Assembly (NCBI GenBank): GCA_963783375.1
Contig: CAWANH010000015.1
Location: forward strand, 1-11,344
Source: Candidatus Eiseniibacteriota bacterium
GTDB lineage: Bacteria > Eisenbacteria > RBG-16-71-46 > JABDJR01
DNA: 11,344 nt
Reading direction: 5' to 3'
The notes beneath the pieces are model-generated. The model was not told the DNA's origin. It made no database searches and saw nothing but the letters and a program-made list of their open reading frames with translations. The position numbers and the translations under genes were made by a program. This document shows positions 1 to 11,344 of this stretch, one piece after another. Numbering within the stretch: the first letter of the stretch is position 1; every line of letters begins with the position of its first letter.

Positions 1-2
1 AT

Positions 3-305
3 GCCGAGTTCCTGGTCGGGGACATTCGCGCCCTCCTCGCCGATCCCGAGCTTCGGCGAACCCTGGCCCCCGACGCGGTGGTCCTGGATCCGCCCCGGGA
101 GGGGATCCACGCCGACGTGGCGGCGGCGCTGATCGATCTCGCTCCGGGCCGGATCGTCTACGTCTCATGCAATCCGGCCACCCTGGCCCGGGACCTGGCC
201 CTCTTCGCCGCCGGCGGCTACCGGCCGGAGCCGGTCCTCCCGGTGGACATGTTCCCCCACACCGCTCACGTGGAATGCGTGACCGCGCTCCGGAGAGCCA
301 CATGA
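3..305 (+). CDS. rlmD: 23S rRNA (uracil-C5)-methyltransferase, RlmD/TrmA family, C-terminal part (5'-truncated by window edge)
   Basis: Frame is open from position 3 (AEFLVGDIRALL...). It contains the m5U methyltransferase motifs VVLDPPREG, IVYVSCNPATLARD (catalytic Cys) and DMFPHTAHVE. Stop TGA is at 303-305. Confidence 0.9.
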   Translation, partial: AEFLVGDIRALLADPELRRTLAPDAVVLDPPREGIHADVAAALIDLAPGRIVYVSCNPATLARDLALFAAGGYRPEPVLPVDMFPHTAHVECVTALRRAT

Positions 306-1195
306 CCCCCCTCCCCACGATCCGGCCGGCCCGGTCGGGCGACCTCGGCGAGGTGAGCCGGCTGGTCGGACGGTTGAACGCGCTCCCCGAGCAACGCTCT
401 CTCATGCTGGACGAGACGGTGGACGGGGTCCGGAAGAACCTCGAGGAGTTCGACGACCCCTGGGAGTCCTGCTTCGTGGTCTCGGAGATCGGGTCGGGGA
501 TCACGGGCGCCGCCGGCGCGGAGTGGACCCCCGCCAATCGCCGGGGCCGGCTGTTCGGACCCTTCGTGGAGGCCGAACCCGCGGGCCCGGCGTTCGGAGG
601 CCTCCTCACCGCAGCGGTGGCCCTGATTCCCCCGGGGATCGACACCCTGGACGCCTTCATCGATCACGCCGCGGTGATCGCCCGCCGAGGCCTCGAAGCC
701 GGCGCGTTCGAGGAGATCCGGCGGGTGCTGATCTACACCGCGCCACTCCCCGGCCGGAACCCCACCCCCGTCGAGCCCGGCCGCGATCTTTCCCCCGAAC
801 ACGAGAAAGCGTTCCTCGAACTCCACCGGCTCTGCTTTCCCGATTCCTACACCGAGGGACGAACGCTTCTGGCCTCACGGGACGAGCGGAGCCGGATCCT
901 CATGGCCACCGAGGGTCCGCGCCTCAGCGGCTACCTGGCCGCGAACCTGGAGGAAGGGCCGAGCGAGGGGTTCGTGCAGTACCTGGGGGTGGCGCCGGAT
1001 CTCCGCGGGAGGGGCCTCGGCCGACGGTTGTCGGCGCAGTCGCTTCGATGGTTCCGGGAGACCGGCATGCCCCAGGCCTCCCTCACCGTGGAGGACAAGA
1101 ACACCGGCGCCCGCGGCCTTTACGAGAGCGTGGGGTTCTCGGTGTTCCGGAGCGGGGTGGTGCTCCGGAAGGATCTCGCCGCCGCGACTCCCTGA
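302..1195 (+). CDS. GNAT-family N-acetyltransferase with two tandem GNAT domains (297 aa), substrate unknown
   Basis: ATG at 302 overlaps the rlmD stop (ATGA); the ORF-track start at 167 lies inside rlmD. The N-terminus TIRPARSGD is a typical GNAT start. The C-terminal domain has acetyl-CoA motif A (LGVAPDLRGRGLGRRL) and LTVEDKNTGARGLYESVGF. Confidence 0.88.
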   Translation: MTPLPTIRPARSGDLGEVSRLVGRLNALPEQRSLMLDETVDGVRKNLEEFDDPWESCFVVSEIGSGITGAAGAEWTPANRRGRLFGPFVEAEPAGPAFGGLLTAAVALIPPGIDTLDAFIDHAAVIARRGLEAGAFEEIRRVLIYTAPLPGRNPTPVEPGRDLSPEHEKAFLELHRLCFPDSYTEGRTLLASRDERSRILMATEGPRLSGYLAANLEEGPSEGFVQYLGVAPDLRGRGLGRRLSAQSLRWFRETGMPQASLTVEDKNTGARGLYESVGFSVFRSGVVLRKDLAAATP

Positions 1196-1199
1196 GGCC

Positions 1200-1220
1200 G
1201 ACCCGCGCGCCGGGCGGGTT
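1200..1220. terminator. possible weak hairpin between the convergent GNAT and coaX genes
   Basis: ACCCGC (1201-1206) and GCGGGT (1214-1219) form an inverted repeat with a 7-nt loop. There is no U-tract on either strand. Confidence 0.2.
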
Positions 1221-1232
1221 CAAGGCGGGGGG

Positions 1233-2009
1233 TCACGATTTGGCGGCGCGCTCCCATACCAGCCGGATCCCGTTCACGGTCAGGGATTCGTCCACTGCGG
1301 TGATGGTCTCCGAGGCCTCGGCAATGGCGGTCGCCAGCCCCCCGGTCGCCACCACCGGGAGCCCCGGTGCCAAACCCATCTCCTTCACCACCGCCCGCAC
1401 CAGCGCGTCCACGCCCCCCACCGCCCCGTAGAAGATCCCCGCCTGCATGCTCTCCTCGGTGGTGCGGCCCACCACGTGGGCCGGACGCTTGATCTCCACC
1501 CGGGCCAGGCGCGCGCCGTGGGAGAACAGGGCGTTGGCCCCGGTGGAGATCCCCGGGGCGATCACCCCCCCGGCGTACTCCCGGTTCGCGGTAATCACGT
1601 CGAGGGTGGTGGCGGTGCCGAGATCCACGACGATGGATGGCGCGCCGTACCCCGCGATGACCGCGACCGCGTTCACCAGGCGGTCGGCCCCCACCGAGGC
1701 GCGATCGTGATAGAGGATGGGAAGGTCGGGGACCGCCCGGTGGTCGATCACCATTGCCTCCCGGTCGAACAGCCGGCGGGCCAGGACGCGATACTCGGGG
1801 GTGAGTCCGGGCACCACCGAGGACACCGCCATCCCGGTGATCTCCCGCTCCTCGGCGCCCACGCTGCTCAGGAGATAGTGGAAGAGCACCGAAAGCTCGT
1901 CCCCGGTCTGGCGGGGGGAACTGGTGAGCCGCCAGTGATGCTTCAGGGTCTCCCCCTCGAAAAGGGCGACCAGGGTTTCGGAGTTTCCGACGTCGACGGC
2001 CAACAACAT
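1233..2009 (-). CDS. coaX: type III pantothenate kinase
   Basis: Motifs LLAVDVGNSET, SSVVP, VGADR, VVDLGTATT, GGVIAPG and VATGG are present in a 258-aa protein. A purine-rich RBS (GGAAAGGAAAAGACC) precedes the ATG. Confidence 0.95.
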   Translation of the reverse strand: MLLAVDVGNSETLVALFEGETLKHHWRLTSSPRQTGDELSVLFHYLLSSVGAEEREITGMAVSSVVPGLTPEYRVLARRLFDREAMVIDHRAVPDLPILYHDRASVGADRLVNAVAVIAGYGAPSIVVDLGTATTLDVITANREYAGGVIAPGISTGANALFSHGARLARVEIKRPAHVVGRTTEESMQAGIFYGAVGGVDALVRAVVKEMGLAPGLPVVATGGLATAIAEASETITAVDESLTVNGIRLVWERAAKS

Positions 2010-2034
2010 GGTCTTTTCCTTTCCGGCCTCGGGA

Positions 2035-2859
2035 TCAGTCCTCGGGAGCCTCGGGTTCCGCCGGCTCCCCGGCCTCGCGCTCCCGGCGCCGTTCCTCCCG
2101 CTCCTCCCGGGCTCGAGTGGCGCGCTTTCCCTTGTAGACCGTGGACGAGACGATGAAGCTCAGGACGAGGAGGATCAGCAGAGGGATGGCCAGGGCGATC
2201 TGCGATATCGGGTCCGCCGGGGTCAGCACCGCGGAGGTGATGAAGATGACCACCACCGAATGGCGCCAGAAGCGCTTGAAGAACGACGGGTTCAGGACGC
2301 CGATCGAGGTGAGGAACGCGGAGAAGAGCGGGAGCTGGAAGATCAGCCCGCAGGCCAACCCCATGGCGAACACCATGTCCAGGAGGGAACCCACCTCGAT
2401 CTGGGGGGCCAGGTTCAGGGTGCCGAAGCCGATCAGCACCCTCACCATGAGCGGGGTCATGATGAAGTAGGAGAAGCTGATCCCCACGTAGAACAGCAGC
2501 ACCGAGGAAACCACCCCGGGCAGCACCACCTTGCGCTCCCGGTCCAGGAGACCCGGCCCCACGAAGCTCCAGATCTTCCAGAAGATGTACGGCAGGGTGA
2601 GAATGATGCCGAGGATGATGGCGACCTTGAGCCGGGCGAGGAAGGCCCCCTGGGGCTTGAGGAACACCGCCTTCGTGGCGGTGGAGTTGATGAGCCAGGT
2701 GAGGATGCGCCCCGAGAAGGACCAGGCCAGCGCCCCTCCCACCGCGACGGCAATGATGACGCGGATCAGGGTCTGCCGGAGTTCCTCCAGGTGCTGGAGG
2801 AAGGGCATGACCCTATCATCCTGGGAGTCGCCGATCCGGTCGGGGGAATCCACGGGCAA
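2035..2859 (-). CDS. tatC: twin-arginine translocase subunit TatC
   Basis: Motifs MPFLQHLEELR, IWSFVGPGLLDRER, GLIFQLP and VLTPADPISQ, about six hydrophobic segments, and a charged C-terminal tail. The start is uncertain: TTG 2859, GTG 2853 or ATG 2808. Confidence 0.95.
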   Translation of the reverse strand: MPVDSPDRIGDSQDDRVMPFLQHLEELRQTLIRVIIAVAVGGALAWSFSGRILTWLINSTATKAVFLKPQGAFLARLKVAIILGIILTLPYIFWKIWSFVGPGLLDRERKVVLPGVVSSVLLFYVGISFSYFIMTPLMVRVLIGFGTLNLAPQIEVGSLLDMVFAMGLACGLIFQLPLFSAFLTSIGVLNPSFFKRFWRHSVVVIFITSAVLTPADPISQIALAIPLLILLVLSFIVSSTVYKGKRATRAREEREERRREREAGEPAEPEAPED

Positions 2860-2864
2860 GGGAG

Positions 2865-3344
2865 CTACTCTCGGGATCGCGGCGGCTTCGGCTCACCGGC
2901 GCCCAGCCCCTGGATCTCATCGAGAAACTGATTGACGTCCTTGAACTGCCGGTAGACCGACGCGAACCGGACGTAGGCAACCTCGTCGAGACCCTGCAGC
3001 TCTTCCATCACCCGCTCCCCGATCAGCTTGCTCGGGACCTCGCCCGGGGCCCGGCGCTGGATCTCGGTCTCGATCCGGTCGACCATCTCCTCGATCTGGG
3101 TGAGGGAAATGGGCCGCTTCTCGCAGGCCCGGGAGATCCCGGCGATGATCTTCTCGCGGCTGAAAGTCTCCCGCTTCCCGTCCCGCTTCACCACCACCAT
3201 GCTGGCGTTTTCCACGTACTCATAGGTGGTGAACCGGTTTCCGCACCCGATGCACTCCCGGCGCCGGCGGATGGCTCGGCCTTCCTTGGTGGACCTGGAG
3301 TCGATGACGCGGTCCTCGAGGTGGCCGCATTTCGGACAGCGCAT
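2865..3344 (-). CDS. nrdR: transcriptional repressor NrdR (zinc ribbon + ATP cone), 159 aa
   Basis: N-terminus MRCPKCGHLEDRVIDSR...AIRRRRECIGCGNRFTTYE, then ATP cone VVKRDGKRE...DEVAYVRFASVYRQF. The true start is ATG 3344 with SD GAGGGGG; the extension to 4313 in the ORF track is spurious. Confidence 0.97.
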   Translation of the reverse strand: MRCPKCGHLEDRVIDSRSTKEGRAIRRRRECIGCGNRFTTYEYVENASMVVVKRDGKRETFSREKIIAGISRACEKRPISLTQIEEMVDRIETEIQRRAPGEVPSKLIGERVMEELQGLDEVAYVRFASVYRQFKDVNQFLDEIQGLGAGEPKPPRSRE

Positions 3345-3367
3345 GGCTTCCCCCCTCGCTCCCGGGA

Positions 3368-3383
3368 GCGCAGGATCTCGTGG
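3368..3383. promoter_or_regulatory. NrdR box 2 (putative, weaker)
   Basis: The minus strand reads ccaCGAGATCCTGcgc (9/16 match to consensus). It is offset exactly 31 bp from box 1, the typical tandem NrdR-box spacing, and lies just downstream of the predicted transcription start. Confidence 0.5.
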
Positions 3384-3391
3384 GAGGTGGG

Positions 3392-3421
3392 ATGCTACCC
3401 GCCATATCTGGGGGTTGTCAA
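3392..3421 (-). promoter_or_regulatory. sigma70-type promoter of nrdR(-tatC-coaX)
   Basis: The minus strand reads TTGACA (3421-3416, perfect -35), an 18-nt spacer, then TAGCAT (3397-3392, TAnnnT -10), 47 nt upstream of the nrdR ATG. Confidence 0.75.
3399..3414. promoter_or_regulatory. NrdR box 1 (putative)
   Basis: ccgCCATATCTGGggg resembles the NrdR consensus acaCwAtATaTwGtgt, with C, A, central AT, T and G all conserved. It lies between the -35 and -10 of the nrdR promoter. Confidence 0.65.
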
Positions 3422-3442
3422 CGCGTCCCGACGGCCCGCCGC

Positions 3443-3471
3443 TAGGCAACAACGGACGCTTCTGGTAGTAT
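3443..3471 (+). promoter_or_regulatory. putative sigma70-type promoter for the FG-GAP gene
   Basis: TAGGCA (3443-3448), a 17-nt spacer, then TAGTAT (3466-3471) preceded by TG-n (extended -10), within an AT-rich patch. It sits back-to-back with the nrdR promoter. Confidence 0.45.
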
Positions 3472-3600
3472 TTAGGGCTCAACTTCCGCCAGTGACCACC
3501 GACCCTGATCGCCTCAGCATCCCAAGAGAATCCGGTTCCGGCCGATTCGCGAGCCCCGAGGCCCGGCGCGAGTTTTCGACAGGATGCCGGAACGAGCACC

Positions 3601-6600
3601 ATGAAGCTTGGACGGCTCTCCCTCCTCATAGTTCTCCTCTCGACAGGAATCCCGGCCAACCCCGGGCGGGCCGCCGCGTCCACCCCGGTTCCGTACTGGG
3701 ACCTCTCCCGCGACTGGAACCCGGGCCAGATCACCTTGTTCAACCCGGACAGCCTGGACGGCCAGAATGGGGTTCCGGTCAAGGCGGCGGATCTGAACGG
3801 GGACGGCCGATCCGAGGTGGTGGTGAGCGCCTTCAACGGCGACGGGCCCCGAGGAGGCGCCTTCCGGGAGTCGGCCGGCGAGATCCACGTGTTCTTCTGG
3901 GACGGGACGCCGTTCGGGCAGGCGGTGGATTTCGCCCGCTCCGACTCCCGGGTGCTGGAGATCTTCGGACCCGGACCGGGATGGTATCTCGGGGATGCCC
4001 TGGCCCGAGGCGACGTCGACGGCGACGGCATCGACGACGTGGTGGTGGGGGCCTTCGGCGCCGGCCAATCCGGGAGGGTCCACGCCGGGATGGTGTACGT
4101 CCTTTTCGGAGACTCCACCCTGGCCGGGGGGGCGAGCATCGATCTTGCCCAGGGCCTCCCCCCCGGCATGACCTCCGTCCTGGGAAGCGACCCCGACGAT
4201 CGTCTGGGGGTCTGGAGCGCGGTGGGCGACGTGAACGGGGATGGATCCCCGGACCTGGTTATGGGAGCGGACCGCGCCGGCGGGCCGGGGGGAGCCAGAG
4301 CCGAGGCCGGCAAGGTGGTCGTGCTCTACGGCCCCATCCCGCGGGGAACGGCCATCGATCTCGCCGACACCACCGCGTGGTCCACCAGCCTCATCTGGGG
4401 AATCGACTCCGAGGACCACTTCGGGTCCACCACCGAATGCGCGGACCTGGACGGTGACGGCTACGCCGACGTGGTGGGCGCGGCCTCCGCGAAGGGTCTC
4501 TCCCGGAACACCTACGACAACGGCGGAGCCGCCGACGGACCACCTTATAAGTACCGGCCGGACTCCGGGGAAACCTGGATCGTCTGGGGGGGACCCGCCC
4601 TCCCCGACACCGTGGACCTGGCCGCTCCCCCCGCCGGGGTGTCGCTGACCGTCATCTACGGCCGGGCGAGCGGGGCCCTCTGCGGCGAGGAGCTGAGCGT
4701 TGCGGACGTGAACGGGGACGGCCTGAGCGACCTGCTCGTCGGATCCCTGACCACCGACGGCCCCCCCTACGACTATCGCTCGAACGGGGGCGAAGGCTAC
4801 GTCTTCTACGGCTCCCCCACCCTCCGGGACACCCTTCTGGACATGGCCTCCACGGCCTACCCGCACCTCACGGTCTACGGGGTCGACGGGTCCATCGCCA
4901 CGGACTCCTTCACCGCCGGAGACGTGAACGGCGACGGTTACGACGACCTCCTGGTGGGCATGCCCCACGATCCGGGACCCACGGGCCGGAAAGCGGGAGC
5001 GGTGGGCGTCCTCTACGGCGCTCCCGACCTACCTCCGGTCATCGACCTGGAGTCCCCTCCCACCCCCTACACCCTGATCGAGGGGGCCGATCACGACGAC
5101 GACACCGCCTACTGGTCCAGCATCGGCGACGTGGACGGGGACGGTCGGATGGACCCGATCATCAACGCCATGTCCGGCGGCGGACCGCGGAACAGCCGCT
5201 ACCACACCGGGGACGCCCGGATCGTGAGCGGGGCCTGGCTCACCCTCCATCCCGCCCCACCCACGAATCTCTCGGTCACGCTCACTTCCCCGGGGAATCG
5301 GGCGCGCCTCTCCTGGAGCCCCTCCCCCACCCCGGAAACCACCGGATACCGGGTGCTCCAGGGCCCGGATGCGGATCATCTCTACCCGAGCCCGAGCGCC
5401 GTCCTCACCGGGACCGAAGCCCAGGTCCTCGACCTCCCGTTCTACACCCCGGTGACCTTCGCGGTGCAGGCGGTCATCGGGGGTCTGGAGAGCCGCACAT
5501 CCGACCCGGTGGGCGCGAAGCCGGGGACCACCCCACCCACGGCGCTGGCCGCCCAGCGTCTGGGAAACACCTCGGTCGCCCTCACCTGGAAGGCCTCCCC
5601 CGACCCCGACATCCTCGGCTACCGCCTGTACCGGGTTTTCGAGGTGGACGAAGCGGGGTCCGAGACACCCCTCCCCGGCGTCCACGACCTGGTCACGCCG
5701 GAGATCCTGCCCACCTGCGCCTTCGTGGACACCACCGCTCCACCCTTCAGCGCCCTACAGTACCGGGTGACTACGGTGGTGGGACCTCTTACCGAATCCC
5801 TTTTTTCGGAACCGGCGAACGTCTTCACCCGGCCCGACACGGTGGGGAGCGGCCTGCTCCTGGTCAACGACTACAACTGGTTTCTGTACTCCGACGGCCC
5901 CGCCCCCAACTATCCCGCGGACCCGTACGAGATGTACGATGCCCGCGCGGTGACCGGGAGCGTGCCCTTCGACTTCTGGGACATGCGCACCGGCTGGAGC
6001 ACGTATCCCTCGGGGTACGTCCCCTTGGGAAAGGGAAGCCTGGACCCCGCCGTGCTCTTCCAGCACGCGGCGGTCCTCTGGTGCGCCCAAGGCCTGGACA
6101 ACACCGACGACGAGCGGATCAGCGACCTGCAGGACCTCCTCCTCGGCTTCCATGAGGCCGGGGGCAGGATCATCTTCGCCGGCTGGTTGATGGACTTCTA
6201 CATTCCCCCGGAGATCCAGCAGGTTCTGAACGTCGTCGACTGGGACCGGCCGGTCAGCGTCACTCCGTCGCGCCTGCTCACCCCCCAGCTCCCGGGGCTC
6301 ACGTCCATCGGCCCCGCCCCCGACGTCTCCTCCGCGTTCAACTGCGCGGTGCCGGTCTTCGGCCCCGGTGGGGGCATCTACACCTATTACCGGCTGAATT
6401 TCGAGGCTCACCCTCCACTCTGCTTCAGCTCCACCGACTCCACCGGAGCCCAGATCGTGGTGATCTCCGCCGGCCCGTCCTATCTCGATCCGGTTGCCCT
6501 GGGTCAGAACATGTCCCGCATCCTCGCGACCCTCGGGCTCGATCCGGGGGTGATCGCGGTGCCGGACGGGGGAGCCCCGCCACCCACGCTCAGCCCGGCC

Positions 6601-6855
6601 TTCCCCAATCCATCCCACGGATCCGCGTCGGTCAGCTTCCGGCTCGACGCTCCCTGCCCGGTCGACGCCCAGGTGTACGACCTTCAGGGGCGCCGGGTGC
6701 GGCTCCTGACCTCGGGAAACTGCCCGGCCGGAGTCTCGATCCTGACCTGGGACGGCCGGGACGACGCGGGCCGCCGGGCCCCGGGGGGACTCTATTTCGT
6801 GCGGGTTTCCACCCAATCCTTTCACGCCTCCCGGCGCGTGATGCTCCTGCCCTGA
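3601..6855 (+). CDS. secreted FG-GAP repeat (integrin-alpha-like beta-propeller) protein with two FN3 domains and a C-terminal FlgD-Ig/T9SS-type sorting-like domain
   Basis: Sec-type signal peptide MKLGRLSLLIVLLSTG...AAA; seven D[LV][ND]GDG loops; FN3 signatures PAPPTNL..LSW..GYRV and TPPTAL..LTW..DILGYRLYR; C-terminus FPNP..VYDLQGRRVRLL..WDGRDDAGRR..GLYFVRV..RRVMLL. Confidence 0.9.
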   Translation: MKLGRLSLLIVLLSTGIPANPGRAAASTPVPYWDLSRDWNPGQITLFNPDSLDGQNGVPVKAADLNGDGRSEVVVSAFNGDGPRGGAFRESAGEIHVFFWDGTPFGQAVDFARSDSRVLEIFGPGPGWYLGDALARGDVDGDGIDDVVVGAFGAGQSGRVHAGMVYVLFGDSTLAGGASIDLAQGLPPGMTSVLGSDPDDRLGVWSAVGDVNGDGSPDLVMGADRAGGPGGARAEAGKVVVLYGPIPRGTAIDLADTTAWSTSLIWGIDSEDHFGSTTECADLDGDGYADVVGAASAKGLSRNTYDNGGAADGPPYKYRPDSGETWIVWGGPALPDTVDLAAPPAGVSLTVIYGRASGALCGEELSVADVNGDGLSDLLVGSLTTDGPPYDYRSNGGEGYVFYGSPTLRDTLLDMASTAYPHLTVYGVDGSIATDSFTAGDVNGDGYDDLLVGMPHDPGPTGRKAGAVGVLYGAPDLPPVIDLESPPTPYTLIEGADHDDDTAYWSSIGDVDGDGRMDPIINAMSGGGPRNSRYHTGDARIVSGAWLTLHPAPPTNLSVTLTSPGNRARLSWSPSPTPETTGYRVLQGPDADHLYPSPSAVLTGTEAQVLDLPFYTPVTFAVQAVIGGLESRTSDPVGAKPGTTPPTALAAQRLGNTSVALTWKASPDPDILGYRLYRVFEVDEAGSETPLPGVHDLVTPEILPTCAFVDTTAPPFSALQYRVTTVVGPLTESLFSEPANVFTRPDTVGSGLLLVNDYNWFLYSDGPAPNYPADPYEMYDARAVTGSVPFDFWDMRTGWSTYPSGYVPLGKGSLDPAVLFQHAAVLWCAQGLDNTDDERISDLQDLLLGFHEAGGRIIFAGWLMDFYIPPEIQQVLNVVDWDRPVSVTPSRLLTPQLPGLTSIGPAPDVSSAFNCAVPVFGPGGGIYTYYRLNFEAHPPLCFSSTDSTGAQIVVISAGPSYLDPVALGQNMSRILATLGLDPGVIAVPDGGAPPPTLSPAFPNPSHGSASVSFRLDAPCPVDAQVYDLQGRRVRLLTSGNCPAGVSILTWDGRDDAGRRAPGGLYFVRVSTQSFHASRRVMLLP
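3790..5240 (+). repeat. seven FG-GAP protein-level repeats
   Basis: DLNGDGRSE, DVDGDGIDD, DVNGDGSPD, DLDGDGYAD, DVNGDGLSD, DVNGDGYDD and DVDGDGRMD, each followed by a hydrophobic strand and a G-x-hydrophobic strand such as AGKVVVLYG. Degenerate at the DNA level. Confidence 0.85.
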
Positions 6856-6865
6856 TCCGTCTCAA

Positions 6866-6924
6866 GTTCCTCTCCCCGAGTCCGATATCCGAAGCACCCG
6901 TCCGTGTCATCCGGGGAGGAGAAT
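6866..6924 (+). promoter_or_regulatory. possible anti-Shine-Dalgarno stem over the RBS of the PilB-like gene
   Basis: GTTCCTCTCCCCG (6866-6878) can pair with CGGGGAGGAGAAT (6912-6924): 10 Watson-Crick pairs, 2 G-U pairs, 1 mismatch and a 33-nt loop. The stem covers GGAGG (6915-6919). Confidence 0.35.
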
Positions 6925-8458
6925 GTCCATGTCCTCGACGGTCAAGAATCGACCCAACCTGGGTGATATCCTCACCCGACTCAACCTGATCGACGACGAG
7001 CAGGTCCGCGCCGCCCTGGAACTCCAGCAGGAGACAGGGAAGCTGTTCGGAGAGTGCCTGCTGCAGCTCGGCGCCATCGCCGAGGACGACCTTGGGTGGG
7101 CGCTCAGCAGCCAGCTCGATCTCCCGTTCATGAACGTGACCCCGGAGATGCCCGACCCGGAACTCCTGGCCCGCTTTCCCCGGGACTTCCTGCGGCGGAA
7201 CCTCGTCCTTCCCCTGGTGGAGTCGGAGGACAGCCTGTCGGTGGTGCTCTCGGATCCTACCGATGAGCTCACCATGGCCCGCTTGAAGCGGCTATCGGGA
7301 TGTGAGCTGCAGGCGGCGGTGGGCACCCCCACCGCGATCCGCCGGGCCCTGGACGTTCTCCTCGGTCCCGCGGCCGACGGCGATGAGGAGGCGGGGGCCG
7401 ACCGGGTCGTCGCCGGGGTCAAGCGTCGCGCGGCCAGTCTGGCCGCGCCCGAACTCACCCAGCTCCTGGACCGGGCGCTCACCGAAGGGGCTTCGGCCAT
7501 CCATCTGGACCCCGAGGAGGGAAAGGTGCGGGTGCGGTTCCGGGTGAACGGCTATCTTGTCGAGGGCGGGGGTATCCCGGCCAAGGCGATGGACGAGCTG
7601 ATGGAGAATCTTCCGGGATGGCTGGGAGATCCGATCGAGACCGCCCCCGGCGTCCATCGCTGGGGCGAGGGAGCCTCGGGAGCCGAGGCGGCGCCCTTCC
7701 GGGTGATCACGGCCGCCGGGCGGGAAGGGGCCTCCGCCACCCTCATCCTGGAAGGAATGGACTACACCCGTCGCAAGCTCTCCGCTCCGTTCGAACCGGA
7801 GTGGGACCGGCTGAACGGCCTCGTGAACCGACCCCGCGGCCTGGTGGCCGCGGTGGCGCCGTCCCTGGCCGAACGCGAGCAGCTCCTGAGCCGACTTCTG
7901 GGTCTGATCGATGTGTCCCACCGGCGCGGGTGGGTGCTGGCCCCCGAGGGGCTCGCGCTTCCCCGCCGGATCTCCTGCTTCCCCGCCGATCCCAGCCTGG
8001 AGCTCACCCGGGCCTTTGCGGAAATGGAGGGGGTGGACCTCCTGGCCGGGGTCTTCGCCGGCCCGGAACACGCGACCGTCCTTGCCGAGGCCGCCGAGCG
8101 CGACCGGCTGGTGGTGGCGGTCTTCCCCGGGAACTCCGCCCTCGGATTCCTGGCCCGGCTTCACGAGTCCGGCGTCTCCGCGGTCCTTCTCGCCGAGTCC
8201 CTCGTGGCGGTGGTGGCCCAGCGCATCCTCCCCGGGCCGGACCCGGAAGGGGCGGCCCGCGCCATCGCCGAAATTCTTTTCGTGGACACGGGGATGCGAC
8301 GAACCCTCCAGAACGGGGGGCGGATCCAGGACCTTCGCGGGGCGGCCGCCGAGCAGGGGTTCGTGGAGCTCGCGGGCCGGGCCCGTTCTCTCGAGTCCGT
8401 GGACGCAACCGTGATCGACGACCTCGACCGGCACCGGTATCTGGAGGACGCGGCATGA
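6923..8458 (+). CDS. PilB/GspE-family protein with an N-terminal MshEN-like domain and a degenerate, predicted inactive ATPase domain
   Basis: 24-5-24 MshEN-like repeat; T2SSE N-domain (LARFPRDFLRRNLVLP..VVLSDP); N2 motif GASAIHLDP..VRVRFRVNG; PilB-like RLHESGVSAVLLAESLVAVVAQR and RAIAEIL. Walker A, Walker B and the His box are substituted. Start is ATG 6923 or 6929, the latter better spaced from GGAGG. Confidence 0.85.
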   Translation: MSMSSTVKNRPNLGDILTRLNLIDDEQVRAALELQQETGKLFGECLLQLGAIAEDDLGWALSSQLDLPFMNVTPEMPDPELLARFPRDFLRRNLVLPLVESEDSLSVVLSDPTDELTMARLKRLSGCELQAAVGTPTAIRRALDVLLGPAADGDEEAGADRVVAGVKRRAASLAAPELTQLLDRALTEGASAIHLDPEEGKVRVRFRVNGYLVEGGGIPAKAMDELMENLPGWLGDPIETAPGVHRWGEGASGAEAAPFRVITAAGREGASATLILEGMDYTRRKLSAPFEPEWDRLNGLVNRPRGLVAAVAPSLAEREQLLSRLLGLIDVSHRRGWVLAPEGLALPRRISCFPADPSLELTRAFAEMEGVDLLAGVFAGPEHATVLAEAAERDRLVVAVFPGNSALGFLARLHESGVSAVLLAESLVAVVAQRILPGPDPEGAARAIAEILFVDTGMRRTLQNGGRIQDLRGAAAEQGFVELAGRARSLESVDATVIDDLDRHRYLEDAA

Positions 8459-9549
8459 GCCTCGACATCAACAAGCTCCTGGCTTTCACCCTGAAGCAGG
8501 GCGCCTCGGACCTCCACCTGAGCGCGGGGATGCCCCCCATCATCCGCCTGCACGGGGAGATGACCCGGCTCGACGTTCCCGCTCTTGCCTCCGAGGAACT
8601 CGAGTCGCTCCTCAACTCGATCATGACCGAGGACCAGACCAGGGAATTCGAGAAGGCCATGGAGCTGGACTTCGCCATCGAGCTGGGGGACATGGGCCGG
8701 TTCCGGGTGAACGCCTTCAACCAGACCCGGGGGCCGGGAGCGGTGCTCCGCACCATCCCCACCCAGGTCCCCACCCTCGATGACCTCAAGCTCCCCAAGG
8801 TGCTGGCGGAATTGGCCATGAAGGAGCGCGGGCTGATCCTGGTCACCGGGCCCACCGGGAGCGGGAAGTCCACCACCCTGGCCGCCATGGTGAACCATGT
8901 GAACGAGCGCCGTCGCGGCCACATCATCACCATCGAGGACCCGATCGAGTTCGTCCACCAATCCAAGAGCTGCCTCGTCAACCAGCGCGAGGTGGGACGG
9001 AACACCCATTCCTTTGCCGCCGCGCTCCGGAGCGCGCTGCGCGAGGACCCCGACGTGATCCTCGTGGGCGAGCTCCGCGACCTCGAGACCACCCAACTCG
9101 CCATCACCGCCGCCGAAACCGGCCACATCGTCTTCGGTACCCTGCACACCAACAGCGCGGCCAAGACGGTGGACCGCATCATCGATGTCTTCCCCAGCGG
9201 CCAACAGGCCCAGATCCGGAGCATGTTCTCCGAGTCGATCGTGGGCATCATCTGTCAGACCCTGCTCAAGACCAAGGACGGCAAGGGGCGGCTCTGCGCT
9301 CAGGAGATCCTGGTGGCGGTGGCCGCGGTCCGGAACCTGATCCGCGAGGACAAGACGTCGCAGATCATGTCGGTGATCCAGACCGGAGCCCAGCACGGCA
9401 TGCAGAGCATGGACCAGTGCCTGAAGGCCCTGGTGATGGAAGGGAAGGTGGCGGCGGAAGAGGCGGCGACGAAAGCCACCATGCCCTCGATCATCCTGGG
9501 TGCGGGGAAGGACGCCGAGGGCCTGCCGCCCGCGCGCAAGGCGGCCTGA
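8455..9549 (+). CDS. pilT: type IV pilus retraction ATPase PilT (364 aa)
   Basis: ATG 8455 has SD GGAGGA and overlaps the upstream stop (ATGA). Motifs: GASDLHL, Walker A GPTGSGKS, Asp box TIEDPIE, Walker B DPDVILVGE, His box AETGH..TLHTNSA and the PilT signature AVRNLIRE. Confidence 0.96.
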   Translation: MSLDINKLLAFTLKQGASDLHLSAGMPPIIRLHGEMTRLDVPALASEELESLLNSIMTEDQTREFEKAMELDFAIELGDMGRFRVNAFNQTRGPGAVLRTIPTQVPTLDDLKLPKVLAELAMKERGLILVTGPTGSGKSTTLAAMVNHVNERRRGHIITIEDPIEFVHQSKSCLVNQREVGRNTHSFAAALRSALREDPDVILVGELRDLETTQLAITAAETGHIVFGTLHTNSAAKTVDRIIDVFPSGQQAQIRSMFSESIVGIICQTLLKTKDGKGRLCAQEILVAVAAVRNLIREDKTSQIMSVIQTGAQHGMQSMDQCLKALVMEGKVAAEEAATKATMPSIILGAGKDAEGLPPARKAA

Positions 9550-9574
9550 TCAGGAGGCCGACCCGGAGATCGCC

Positions 9575-9600
9575 TCGACCGCCGGCCCCGGCGGAATCGA
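9575..9600. terminator. GC-rich hairpin between the convergent pilT and GlmU-like genes
   Basis: TCGA-CCGCCG-gccc-CGGCGG-aa-TCGA. A second inverted repeat, CGGCCT/AGGCCG, is at 9542-9560. No U-tract is present. Confidence 0.3.
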
Positions 9601-9642
9601 CGGACGCGGGCGAGGATGTCGCGGCCGCGGGCCGGAGCCCGG

Positions 9643-10911
9643 TCAGGGTTTGAGCGCCCACTCCGCGTGGACGCTGCGGAAGAGCACCTCGTCCGCCGGC
9701 TCCATCAAGACCTCGCGTCGGGCCATGACCCGGCGGGCGACGACCAGGGCCTTTTCCAGGTCGTAGGGAACGATCCCTCCCGAGCCGCCCCATGAGAACG
9801 AGGGCACGTGCTTCGGCCCGAACCCCGCCCCGAACACGTTGGCGCTCATCCCGACCACGGTGCCGGTGTTGGTGAGCGTCCCGATCGCGGTCTTGGAGTG
9901 ATCCCCCATGAAGAGCCCCACGAACTGCTCCTCGGAGTCGATCTCACCCCCCGGGGTCCAGATCCGGACGGTGGAGTAGTTGTTCTTCAGGTCCGAGGTG
10001 TTGGTGGCCGCGCCCAGATTGGTCCAGGCCCCCAGATACGAGTGACCCACGTAGCCGTCGTGCTGCTTGTTGGCGTAGCCCTGAAAGATCGATGCCTCGA
10101 CCTCTCCCCCCACCTTGCACTGCGGACCGATGGAGACCGGGCCCTCGATCTTGGCCCCCACCTTGATCACGCTTCGCGGCCCCAGGTAGGCCGGGCCGAG
10201 GATCACCGCGTTCTGAAGCACCCGCGCCCCTTCGCCGAGGATGATCGGACCGGACCCCGCGTCGAGGATGGCCCCGGCCTCGATTCTCACCCCCTCCCGA
10301 AACAGGATGCGGTCGCGGTGGAGGATCTGGCAGCCGGGGGCGAGCTCGGGTTCGGCCCGGGGGGTCGAGGCGTCCACCCCGGCGAAGTCGTCGACCAGGA
10401 CCTCGCCGTTCCACTTCACCAGGTCCCAGAGATGGCGAACCAGGCGGATCCCCGCGGGGGCGCCGGTCACGGTGTGGTCGCGGGGGAGGGGCGACGGTCC
10501 GCCCGCGGCCAGGGCCTCCTCGAGGGTCCGCCGGAAGTCCGAGACGGCCCGGCCGGTGACCCGCGCCGCGGCCAGCTCCCCGCTCTCCTGCACCGCCACC
10601 GCCTTGTCGAGAAGGGTGATGAGGTCGTCGAGGGCGTCTCCGAGGCAGAGGAGACGCCCGTTCAGGAACAGCACGTCGCCTTCCGCGTCGTGGTTCACCC
10701 GGTGGCCGGGGTGGTCCCGCTCCACCAGGGGGCGGAGCACCGGCCGGCAGAGGTAGTCCACCCGCTTGATGTCGCGCTGGGCGAGCTGGGCGGCAAGCCG
10801 GCGTCCGAGGCTCACCGCCCCCACCCGGCAGTCGAAAGCCGGACGGGTGAGGGTGATCGGATAGAGCCGCCGCCAGCCCACGTCCTCGAAGATCACCACC
10901 TGGCGGCTCAT
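9643..10911 (-). CDS. GlmU-like putative sugar nucleotidyltransferase/hexapeptide-repeat acyltransferase (Bacteroidota-type alternative GlmU family), 422 aa
   Basis: ATG 10911 has SD GGAGG and an ATGA overlap with the upstream stop. N-terminus IFED..RLYPITLTRPAFDCRVG and FLNGR; left-handed beta-helix repeats; NKQHDGYVGHSYLGAWTNLGA, TSDLKNNY and GDHSKTAIGT. The canonical GlmU LAAGxGTR motif is absent. Confidence 0.85.
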   Translation of the reverse strand: MSRQVVIFEDVGWRRLYPITLTRPAFDCRVGAVSLGRRLAAQLAQRDIKRVDYLCRPVLRPLVERDHPGHRVNHDAEGDVLFLNGRLLCLGDALDDLITLLDKAVAVQESGELAAARVTGRAVSDFRRTLEEALAAGGPSPLPRDHTVTGAPAGIRLVRHLWDLVKWNGEVLVDDFAGVDASTPRAEPELAPGCQILHRDRILFREGVRIEAGAILDAGSGPIILGEGARVLQNAVILGPAYLGPRSVIKVGAKIEGPVSIGPQCKVGGEVEASIFQGYANKQHDGYVGHSYLGAWTNLGAATNTSDLKNNYSTVRIWTPGGEIDSEEQFVGLFMGDHSKTAIGTLTNTGTVVGMSANVFGAGFGPKHVPSFSWGGSGGIVPYDLEKALVVARRVMARREVLMEPADEVLFRSVHAEWALKP

Positions 10912-11342
10912 CGTTCGCCCTCCGAAGCGGGGAAGGCCGGGTCCTTCCACGCGGTCTTTCCGTCCACCACCGTCCAGAGCGCCCGGGCGCCGAGCAGGTC
11001 CGGCGGATCGCAGGTCACGAGGTTCCGGTCGAAGACCGTGAAGTCGGCGCGCTTCCCCGGGGTCAAGGTGCCGGCCGCGGCGAGATCGCCGGAAACGTAG
11101 GCGGGGCCCGCGGTCGCCGCGACGAGGGCCTCCTCGCGGCCCAGCCGCTCCTCGGGGATCCATCCCCCTACGGGGCGGCCTTGGGCGTCCTGCCGGCTGA
11201 CCGCGGCGTGGAGTCCGCGAAGCGGATCGTGGGACTCCACCGGAAAATCGCTCCCCAGGACGAACACGGCGCCCCCGTCCACGAGGGTACGCCAGGCGTA
11301 AGCCCCGTATAGCCGGTCCTTCCCCAGCCGGTCCGGCGCCCA
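10908..11342 (-). CDS. amidohydrolase family 3 (YtcJ-like) metal-dependent hydrolase, C-terminal part (5'-truncated by window edge)
   Basis: The frame is open to the window edge: WAPDRLGKDRLYGAYAWRTL..LGSDFPVE..P..GLHAAVSR..GWIPEERL..GTLTPGKRADFTVFDRNL..TVVDGK. Confidence 0.9.
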   Translation of the reverse strand, partial: WAPDRLGKDRLYGAYAWRTLVDGGAVFVLGSDFPVESHDPLRGLHAAVSRQDAQGRPVGGWIPEERLGREEALVAATAGPAYVSGDLAAAGTLTPGKRADFTVFDRNLVTCDPPDLLGARALWTVVDGKTAWKDPAFPASEGER

Positions 11343-11344
11343 CG

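Follow-up and report, generated by a model that had tools for sequence, protein, structure and literature searches.

The extension ATPases PilB, GspE, MshE and PilF (TIGR02538, TIGR02533; PDB 5OIU, 5TSH, 4PHT) share an architecture in which an MshEN head precedes an N2D domain and a C-terminal domain (CTD), and MshEN heads are described as receptors of cyclic di-GMP (c-di-GMP; PMC5013675). Non-catalytic control of these motors is also known, since PilZ, FimX and CpiA act on PilB, FimX being an example of degenerate enzyme domains used as a regulator (PMC11656802). On the retraction side, the pair formed by PilT and PilU in Pseudomonas and Vibrio has been studied, and an ATPase-dead PilT can still serve there as the partner that PilU needs (PMC6821130). 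Here we describe a gene pair from a Candidatus Eiseniibacteriota bacterium (contig CAWANH010000015.1, a stretch of 11,344 nucleotides, hereafter the window), in which the gene of a catalytically degenerate PilB paralogue, termed pseudo-PilB, directly precedes an intact, Pseudomonas-type pilT. Pseudo-PilB has the fold of the extension ATPases and their MshEN head. In contrast to them, it lacks the Walker A lysine, the Asp box, the catalytic glutamate, the His box and the zinc site, is not encoded beside pilC, and is conserved chiefly in its head; unlike the MshEN receptors, it has lost both arginines of the c-di-GMP motif. It differs from PilZ, FimX and CpiA in being an ATPase paralogue, and its operon differs from the PilT-PilU pair in that a third, PilB-derived dead member takes the lead, the window's own family having no pilU at the locus. 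The pair is a real, conserved module under selection, whose parts are known and whose arrangement is undescribed; a literature search outside the subscription journals found no dead PilB paired with a PilT.

A comparable arrangement is on record in Geobacter sulfurreducens, where GSU0435 ('mshE') lies directly 5' of pilT3 (GSU0436). PilT3 is the Geobacter paralogue most like P. aeruginosa PilT (56%) and is encoded apart from pilB-pilT4-pilC-pilS-pilR-pilA (PMC5065972; PMC8557921). GSU0435 is 26% identical to PilB, is transcribed and has been put forward as a possible back-up PilB (PMC8557921), and both papers treat it as a putative active ATPase. In Geobacter as in the window, a divergent PilB-like gene stands 5' of a Pseudomonas-type pilT and apart from pilB-pilT-pilC, and judged by this arrangement, not by the sequence of GSU0435, mshE-pilT3 seems to be the same pair. 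Clusters of the ESM Atlas that come from Thermodesulfobacteriota have scores of 0.94 and 0.98 and are taken as a lead only. A published GSU0435 primer matched metagenome contigs at 79 chance loci, none with the second primer or a family match, and the term GSU0435 was not found in two supplements of PMC5013675, whose machine-read tables may miss entries.

The upstream open reading frame (6923-8458, plus strand) encodes 511 amino acids. Profile matches to NF053729 (residues 13-64) and PF05157 (MshEN, residues 65-148) mark its head, while T2SSE/PilB profiles score weakly (TIGR02538, 86 versus 676 bits). The AlphaFold2 (AF2) model (pLDDT 81.4, pTM 0.48) finds PilF, GspE and PilB as its top Foldseek matches (E 3.6e-23), so that the N1D-N2D-CTD architecture and the fold of extension ATPases are both present, and over residues 23-230 the protein is 27% identical to the PilB of its own genome. 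The Walker A consensus GxxGxGK[ST] is missing, no Asp box (EDPxE) remains, and the Walker B and His boxes carry the substitutions listed in Table 1. The second N2D arginine finger is an isoleucine. The first aligns to an arginine that only 6/50 Eisenbacteria and 9/114 second-phylum relatives possess. Here and below, the second phylum is a group labelled Armatimonadota by NCBI, which we take to be the CSP1-3/Sysuimicrobiota group; most other relatives are Candidatus Eisenbacteria. The Walker A lysine is found in at most 1/50 Eisenbacteria rows and 0/114 second-phylum rows, the catalytic glutamate in 4/50 and 9/114, and the Walker A pattern has no match in 89/89 loci. The tetracysteine zinc motif is gone from pseudo-PilB and from 50/50 Eisenbacteria rows; it is kept in 113-114/114 second-phylum rows. 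Judged by these catalytic features, the upstream protein is confirmed as a catalytically degenerate PilB paralogue and not a PilB/GspE ATPase, in agreement with the preliminary description.

A profile hidden Markov model (HMM) search of 1.84 billion representatives recovered further distant, Walker-degenerate members with the same conserved tryptophan (Trp59, below). These retain more PilB features, and some of them are named Armatimonadota or unclassified; a few distant members, P0268 among them, keep part of the P-loop. Among 141 new rows from this search, the family signature occurs in 0/77 with an intact Walker A. Protein searches by word index, queried with a divergent member or a 72-row alignment, reached few new lineages, and a plasmid search returned, among the matches listed (30 of 618), distant GspE/PulE-type proteins at 22-27%.

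The gene is nonetheless under purifying selection and is no decaying relic. Against the nearest relative, dN/dS by a counting method at high GC content of third codon positions is 0.046/0.255 (0.18) for the whole gene and 0.030/0.258 (0.12) for the CTD, and a second pair of relatives gives 0.143/0.902. The adjacency to pilT is kept as well: pilT starts -4 to +30 nucleotides from the pseudo-PilB gene in 52/53 complete Eisenbacteria genes (34 overlapping) and -28 to +27 nucleotides in 34/35 complete second-phylum genes, counts that omit 11 loci missed by the signature pattern, where an adjacent pilT was seen, and 10 genes cut by contig ends. Chance adjacency is therefore rejected. The flanking genes vary between families, and the constancy of the pair amid changing flanks counts for the adaptor reading given below. 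The preliminary description had named lack of conservation in related genomes as grounds for abandoning the pairing; conservation, selection and co-distribution (below) all went the other way.

Where the sequence is conserved is also instructive. Mean pairwise identity of MshEN_N and CTD is 0.49 and 0.25, respectively, in 29 pseudo-ATPases versus 0.31 and 0.59 in 22 active PilB/GspE, so that conservation in the pseudo family centres on the MshEN head and active enzymes show the reverse. The residue Trp59 occurs in 50/50 Eisenbacteria and 114/114 second-phylum rows and in 0/24 active PilB/GspE, which have varied, mostly polar residues at this position. Mapped on the published motif, it sits between the two ligand-facing leucines of the motif's last helix (PMC5013675). 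From this position in the helix, from which its surface exposure is deduced, Trp59 probably lies on the face opposite the ligand and is likely to be a protein contact. Partner binding is an established role of the PilB N1D (PMC11656802). Control or docking through the N-terminal domain, raised as a possibility in the preliminary description, fits this pattern and remains putative. A protein from Planctomycetota (P0305 / HUT32238.1) has two tandem MshEN domains, each carrying the Trp signature, and lacks the ATPase portion.

The c-di-GMP motif itself is a tandem RLGxx(L/V/I)(L/V/I)xxG..LxxxLxxQ with a five-residue linker (PMC5013675). Pseudo-PilB retains its spacing together with G14, L32, Q35, G43, G50, L57, L61 and Q64, and is changed at both arginine positions (N12 and L41, equivalent to R9 and R38) and at the first turn glycine (N21, equivalent to G18). 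Because both Gly and Gln are kept but neither Arg, binding of c-di-GMP by the window protein is uncertain on sequence grounds. The first-motif glycine is threonine in 31/50 Eisenbacteria rows, and a change of this glycine abolished binding in MshE (PMC5013675). The motifs of the second phylum are intact (RLG..RLG), and most of its members carry a receiver domain fused 5' of pseudo-PilB. The source genome encodes GGDEF domains (9 matches). Its main PilB (L135:7992-9680) has an N-terminus without a recognisable RLG, and pseudo-PilB and the second PilB retain more of the motif. Histidine kinases and stand-alone receiver genes adjoin the module at several loci (L078, L079, L084, L085, L170, L175, L179), and in about 27 loci of family f9 (L057-L102) it is divergent from a two-gene pair that is presumably topoisomerase VI B and A-like.

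The coupled PilT has Walker A, Asp box, Walker B, His box, arginine fingers and AVRNLIRE (of the AIRNLIRE type), and no N1D. Its PDB matches score 443 bits to P. aeruginosa PilT versus 354 to Geobacter PilT4; the PilT of the genome's ordinary pilB-pilT-pilC-pilS-pilR-pilA cluster shows the opposite (338 versus 457). The genome also has a second locus (pilB-pilC-pilin-pilM-secretin-pilT) and a third PilB-like ATPase, and its PilT-family genes number six. By these comparisons the pair is a second retraction module, distinct from the Geobacter-type PilT of the operon. No pilC, pilU or pilin is present in the window, as the preliminary description had observed. The weight placed there on the missing pilC and pilU does not hold, because the coupled PilT belongs to a distinct second module with pilC elsewhere in the genome; a gene closest in the PDB to P. 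aeruginosa PilU follows pilT in many relatives, and the window's family has lost it at this locus. Eight positions distinguish coupled PilTs, six of which are shared by a partner-less PilT (genome G006), and they therefore do not mark an interface. At another locus (L139:7040-12343), a Ser/Thr kinase gene with HEAT-like repeats immediately precedes two tandem, intact PilT-family genes, and tandem pairs of this kind fall into two sister clades elsewhere in the Eisenbacteria. In families without pseudo-PilB (L283, L284, L309), a conserved gene of about 400 amino acids, which we take to be DUF4388-like, comes after the most similar PilT.

Pseudo-PilB and this one type of PilT are distributed together. 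Of 201 Eisenbacteria genomes, 88 carry the pseudo-ATPase and 86 carry a Pseudomonas-type PilT; the two occur together in 80 and are both absent from 107, with thresholds that we set at score gaps and with related genomes that are not independent. Eleven of the 14 discordant genomes reflect contig ends or frameshifts, two have pilT alone and one the pseudo-ATPase alone. A truncated pseudo-PilB of about 210 amino acids (L101:7083-7715), which lacks a pilT and is followed by unrelated genes, represents a loss in progress. In quick IQ-TREE runs, made with no bootstrap and no outgroup, the Eisenbacteria coupled PilTs separate as a clade (99) from the PilTs of pilB-pilT-pilC (100); the PilU-like third genes group together across the two phyla (98); and the pseudo-ATPases of both phyla fall on one side of a branch from 24 active PilB/GspE (99, or 98 for the MshEN part alone).

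Taken together, the domain make-up, the missing catalytic residues, the purifying selection, the constant position beside pilT, the shared distribution with a single PilT clade and the head-centred conservation, along with a second phylum in which the c-di-GMP motifs are intact and receiver domains are fused, argue that pseudo-PilB is a putative non-catalytic adaptor or regulator of the coupled PilT, and of PilU where present. We put the chances of this reading at about even. In it, pseudo-PilB would supply the MshEN head that PilT lacks: the dead ATPase core would hold PilT, the Trp59 face of the head would dock at the pilus base on a partner, for instance PilM, and docking would gate the engagement of this second retraction motor with the machine that the pilB-pilT-pilC operon builds, with signal gating wherever the c-di-GMP motifs survive. 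Since the motif is eroded in Eisenbacteria, signal input is likely to be weak or lost there, with the docking role remaining.

Several observations weigh against an adaptor. Between families, the pseudo-PilB core shares only about 25% identity, which is weak for an interface with a PilT that is 57-65% conserved. In the window's own family, pilT occurs without its partner in G006, a genome 100% complete with the same flanking genes, and in G005, and the pseudo-ATPase occurs without an adjacent pilT in G103 and L179, so neither gene strictly needs the other. The coupled PilT clades of the two phyla are each supported, and their sisterhood is not resolved. As reported in PMC5065972, Geobacter PilT3 functions alone in a foreign host and its loss gave only delays, and co-transcription of mshE and pilT3 was not shown by reverse-transcription PCR, an assay that pilB-pilT4 also failed. 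Prediction of a complex of pseudo-PilB with PilT from 72-row alignments scored 0.00 in two runs, with a mark of 0.32; this yields no verdict and is used neither way.

A wider proposition, which we advance tentatively and consider rather unlikely, is that pseudo-pilB, pilT and pilU form an old multi-phylum unit. Here a dead extension ATPase would act as loader of the retraction motor, lending PilT its N1D/MshEN head in trans and docking it on the pilus machine, with c-di-GMP and phosphorylation switching retraction on. Motor exchange would then be under active control from the retraction side, with the Pseudomonas-type pilT-pilU pair as the remnant left once the loader was lost.

Pseudo-PilB might instead brake extension, competing with active PilB for PilM or PilC or capping PilB assembly; made together with pilT, it would allow one operon to stop extension and start retraction, and contact with PilT would not be required. 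Its descent from PilB, its best-kept N1D and the existence of protein inhibitors of PilB such as CpiA (PMC11656802) suit this idea, which also explains how pilT survives without pseudo-PilB in G006. Pseudo-PilB nevertheless tracks one PilT clade and not PilB: nine sampled genomes outside the window's family that lack it have an active PilB and no PilT more than 54% identical to the coupled one. Trp59 is moreover absent from active PilB, and the surface of the head has therefore changed. We judge a brake unlikely.

Less probable still is a signal relay, in which the pair would sense c-di-GMP or phosphorylation and the state of PilT with its output elsewhere, in exopolysaccharide, adhesion or a second secretion-like machine. 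The receiver fusions and the neighbouring kinases and receivers speak for a relay, as do the delayed attachment, rather than hyperpiliation, of the Geobacter pilT3 mutant (PMC5065972) and the genome's further PilB-PilC machine, the second it encodes, along with its third PilB-like ATPase. Against a relay, proven retraction motors are the nearest matches of the coupled PilT and PilU, and Eisenbacteria keep the pair despite the glycine-to-threonine change noted above.

Mixed hexamers, in which the dead subunit would join PilT or PilB rings and slow or stall them, had been suggested in the preliminary description and appear quite improbable; in summary we call this the weakest reading. The entire N2D and CTD fold is retained, N2D His194 and Arg207 show little or no variation across the family, and coupling would give matched amounts. 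Against this, the equivalents of Geobacter PilB T411, H413, H420, R257, R286 and R455, which make contacts of the open and closed ring (PMC5424180), are changed in our alignment, T411, H413, H420, R271 and R455 being mostly lost as a ring interface, and PilT and PilU, which are far more alike, make separate homohexamers (PMC6821130). That pseudo-PilB is what decay has left of an ancient pilB-pilT operon, or else a divergent but active ATPase, is very improbable and largely refuted: the truncated copy and clean losses, the PilB/GspE labels that databases give relatives and the partial P-loops of distant members are outweighed by the dN/dS of 0.12-0.2 in close pairs, on which pseudogene decay is rejected, by full-length frames or contig-cut parts in 88/201 genomes and by changes in all four catalytic motifs of the window protein.

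The coordinates of the module are given in Table 1.

Table 1. The pseudo-PilB/pilT module in window coordinates (columns: feature, positions, strand, basis).
GGAGG ribosome-binding site of pseudo-PilB	6915..6919	+	sequence; 9 nt before ATG 6929
Pseudo-PilB, MshEN + N2D + RecA-like CTD, catalytically degenerate	6923..8458	+	profiles, AF2 model, Foldseek
MshEN_N, tandem c-di-GMP-type motif, aa 12-64	6956..7114	+	NF053729, 49.1 bits (cut-off 38); mapped on V. cholerae motif (PMC5013675)
Trp59, family signature E.D[IL].WALS.QL	7097..7099	+	family alignments
MshEN_C subdomain, aa 65-148	7115..7366	+	PF05157, 67.8 bits
Degenerate Walker A, APSLAERE instead of GPTGSGKT	7856..7879	+	alignment with active PilB
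Degenerate Walker B, Val377 instead of catalytic Glu	8036..8053	+	alignment with active PilB
Degenerate His box, Arg395 and Pro402 instead of two His	8105..8128	+	alignment with active PilB
GGAGG ribosome-binding site of pilT, within the pseudo-PilB gene	8443..8447	+	sequence; 7 nt before pilT ATG
ATGA stop/start overlap, pseudo-PilB/pilT	8455..8458	+	sequence
pilT, intact, Pseudomonas-type	8455..9549	+	364 aa; TIGR01420, 488.6 bits (cut-off 319.1)

The true start of pseudo-PilB is probably ATG 6929 rather than 6923, giving 509 amino acids, because the ribosome-binding site is suitably spaced from it, the nearest relative (L002) begins at the matching methionine, and the alternative haplotype on contig C29 has a substitution at 6924, inside the 6923 codon. 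The ATGA overlap and the pilT ribosome-binding site inside the upstream gene were correctly described beforehand, as was the unrelated convergent gene that follows pilT, an alt-GlmU (TIGR03991, 380.9 bits). The same -4 overlap recurs in 5/5 same-family relatives found. It proves little alone, since a crude gene caller gives such overlaps in 270/1507 co-directional neighbour pairs (18%) on 2.7 Mb of the same genome; the conserved adjacency, unlike the overlap, is far beyond chance. Of the preliminary description, the dead partner of pilT and the pairing of the two genes are thus supported, and the arguments from pilC and pilU, from the overlap and for mixed hexamers are not. Promoter and terminator scans of 6600-9800 found nothing.

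The entire window (1-11344) is a duplicate haplotig of contig C29 (G000:C29:1018072-1029315; 94.3% over 11.3 kb), whose copy of the pseudo-PilB gene has four single-base deletions. Short-read contigs span all four sites without gaps, and the intact frame is therefore right; they also bridge the pseudo-PilB/pilT junction, and an assembly artefact is rejected as the source of the pair. Most small contigs of the assembly are such duplicates, and its large contigs carry frameshifting single-base deletions. Upstream, window positions 3601-6855 (+) encode a 1084-residue protein with FG-GAP repeats, fn3, FlgD-Ig and a C-terminal tail of the type IX secretion system (T9SS) kind; a similar gene lies 5' of the module in G008 and 5' of the partner-less pilT in G006.

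The exchange of PilB and PilT at the pilus base is an open question, and known regulators mostly act on PilB. The pseudo-ATPase, conserved in no fewer than two phyla and bound to a single PilT/PilU clade, is a candidate regulator on the retraction side. If GSU0435 is an orthologue, a bacterium that can be grown and genetically manipulated would be at hand for testing this candidate. Many database entries annotated as PilB, GspE or MshE, together with the Geobacter back-up PilB candidate (PMC8557921), may not be motors.

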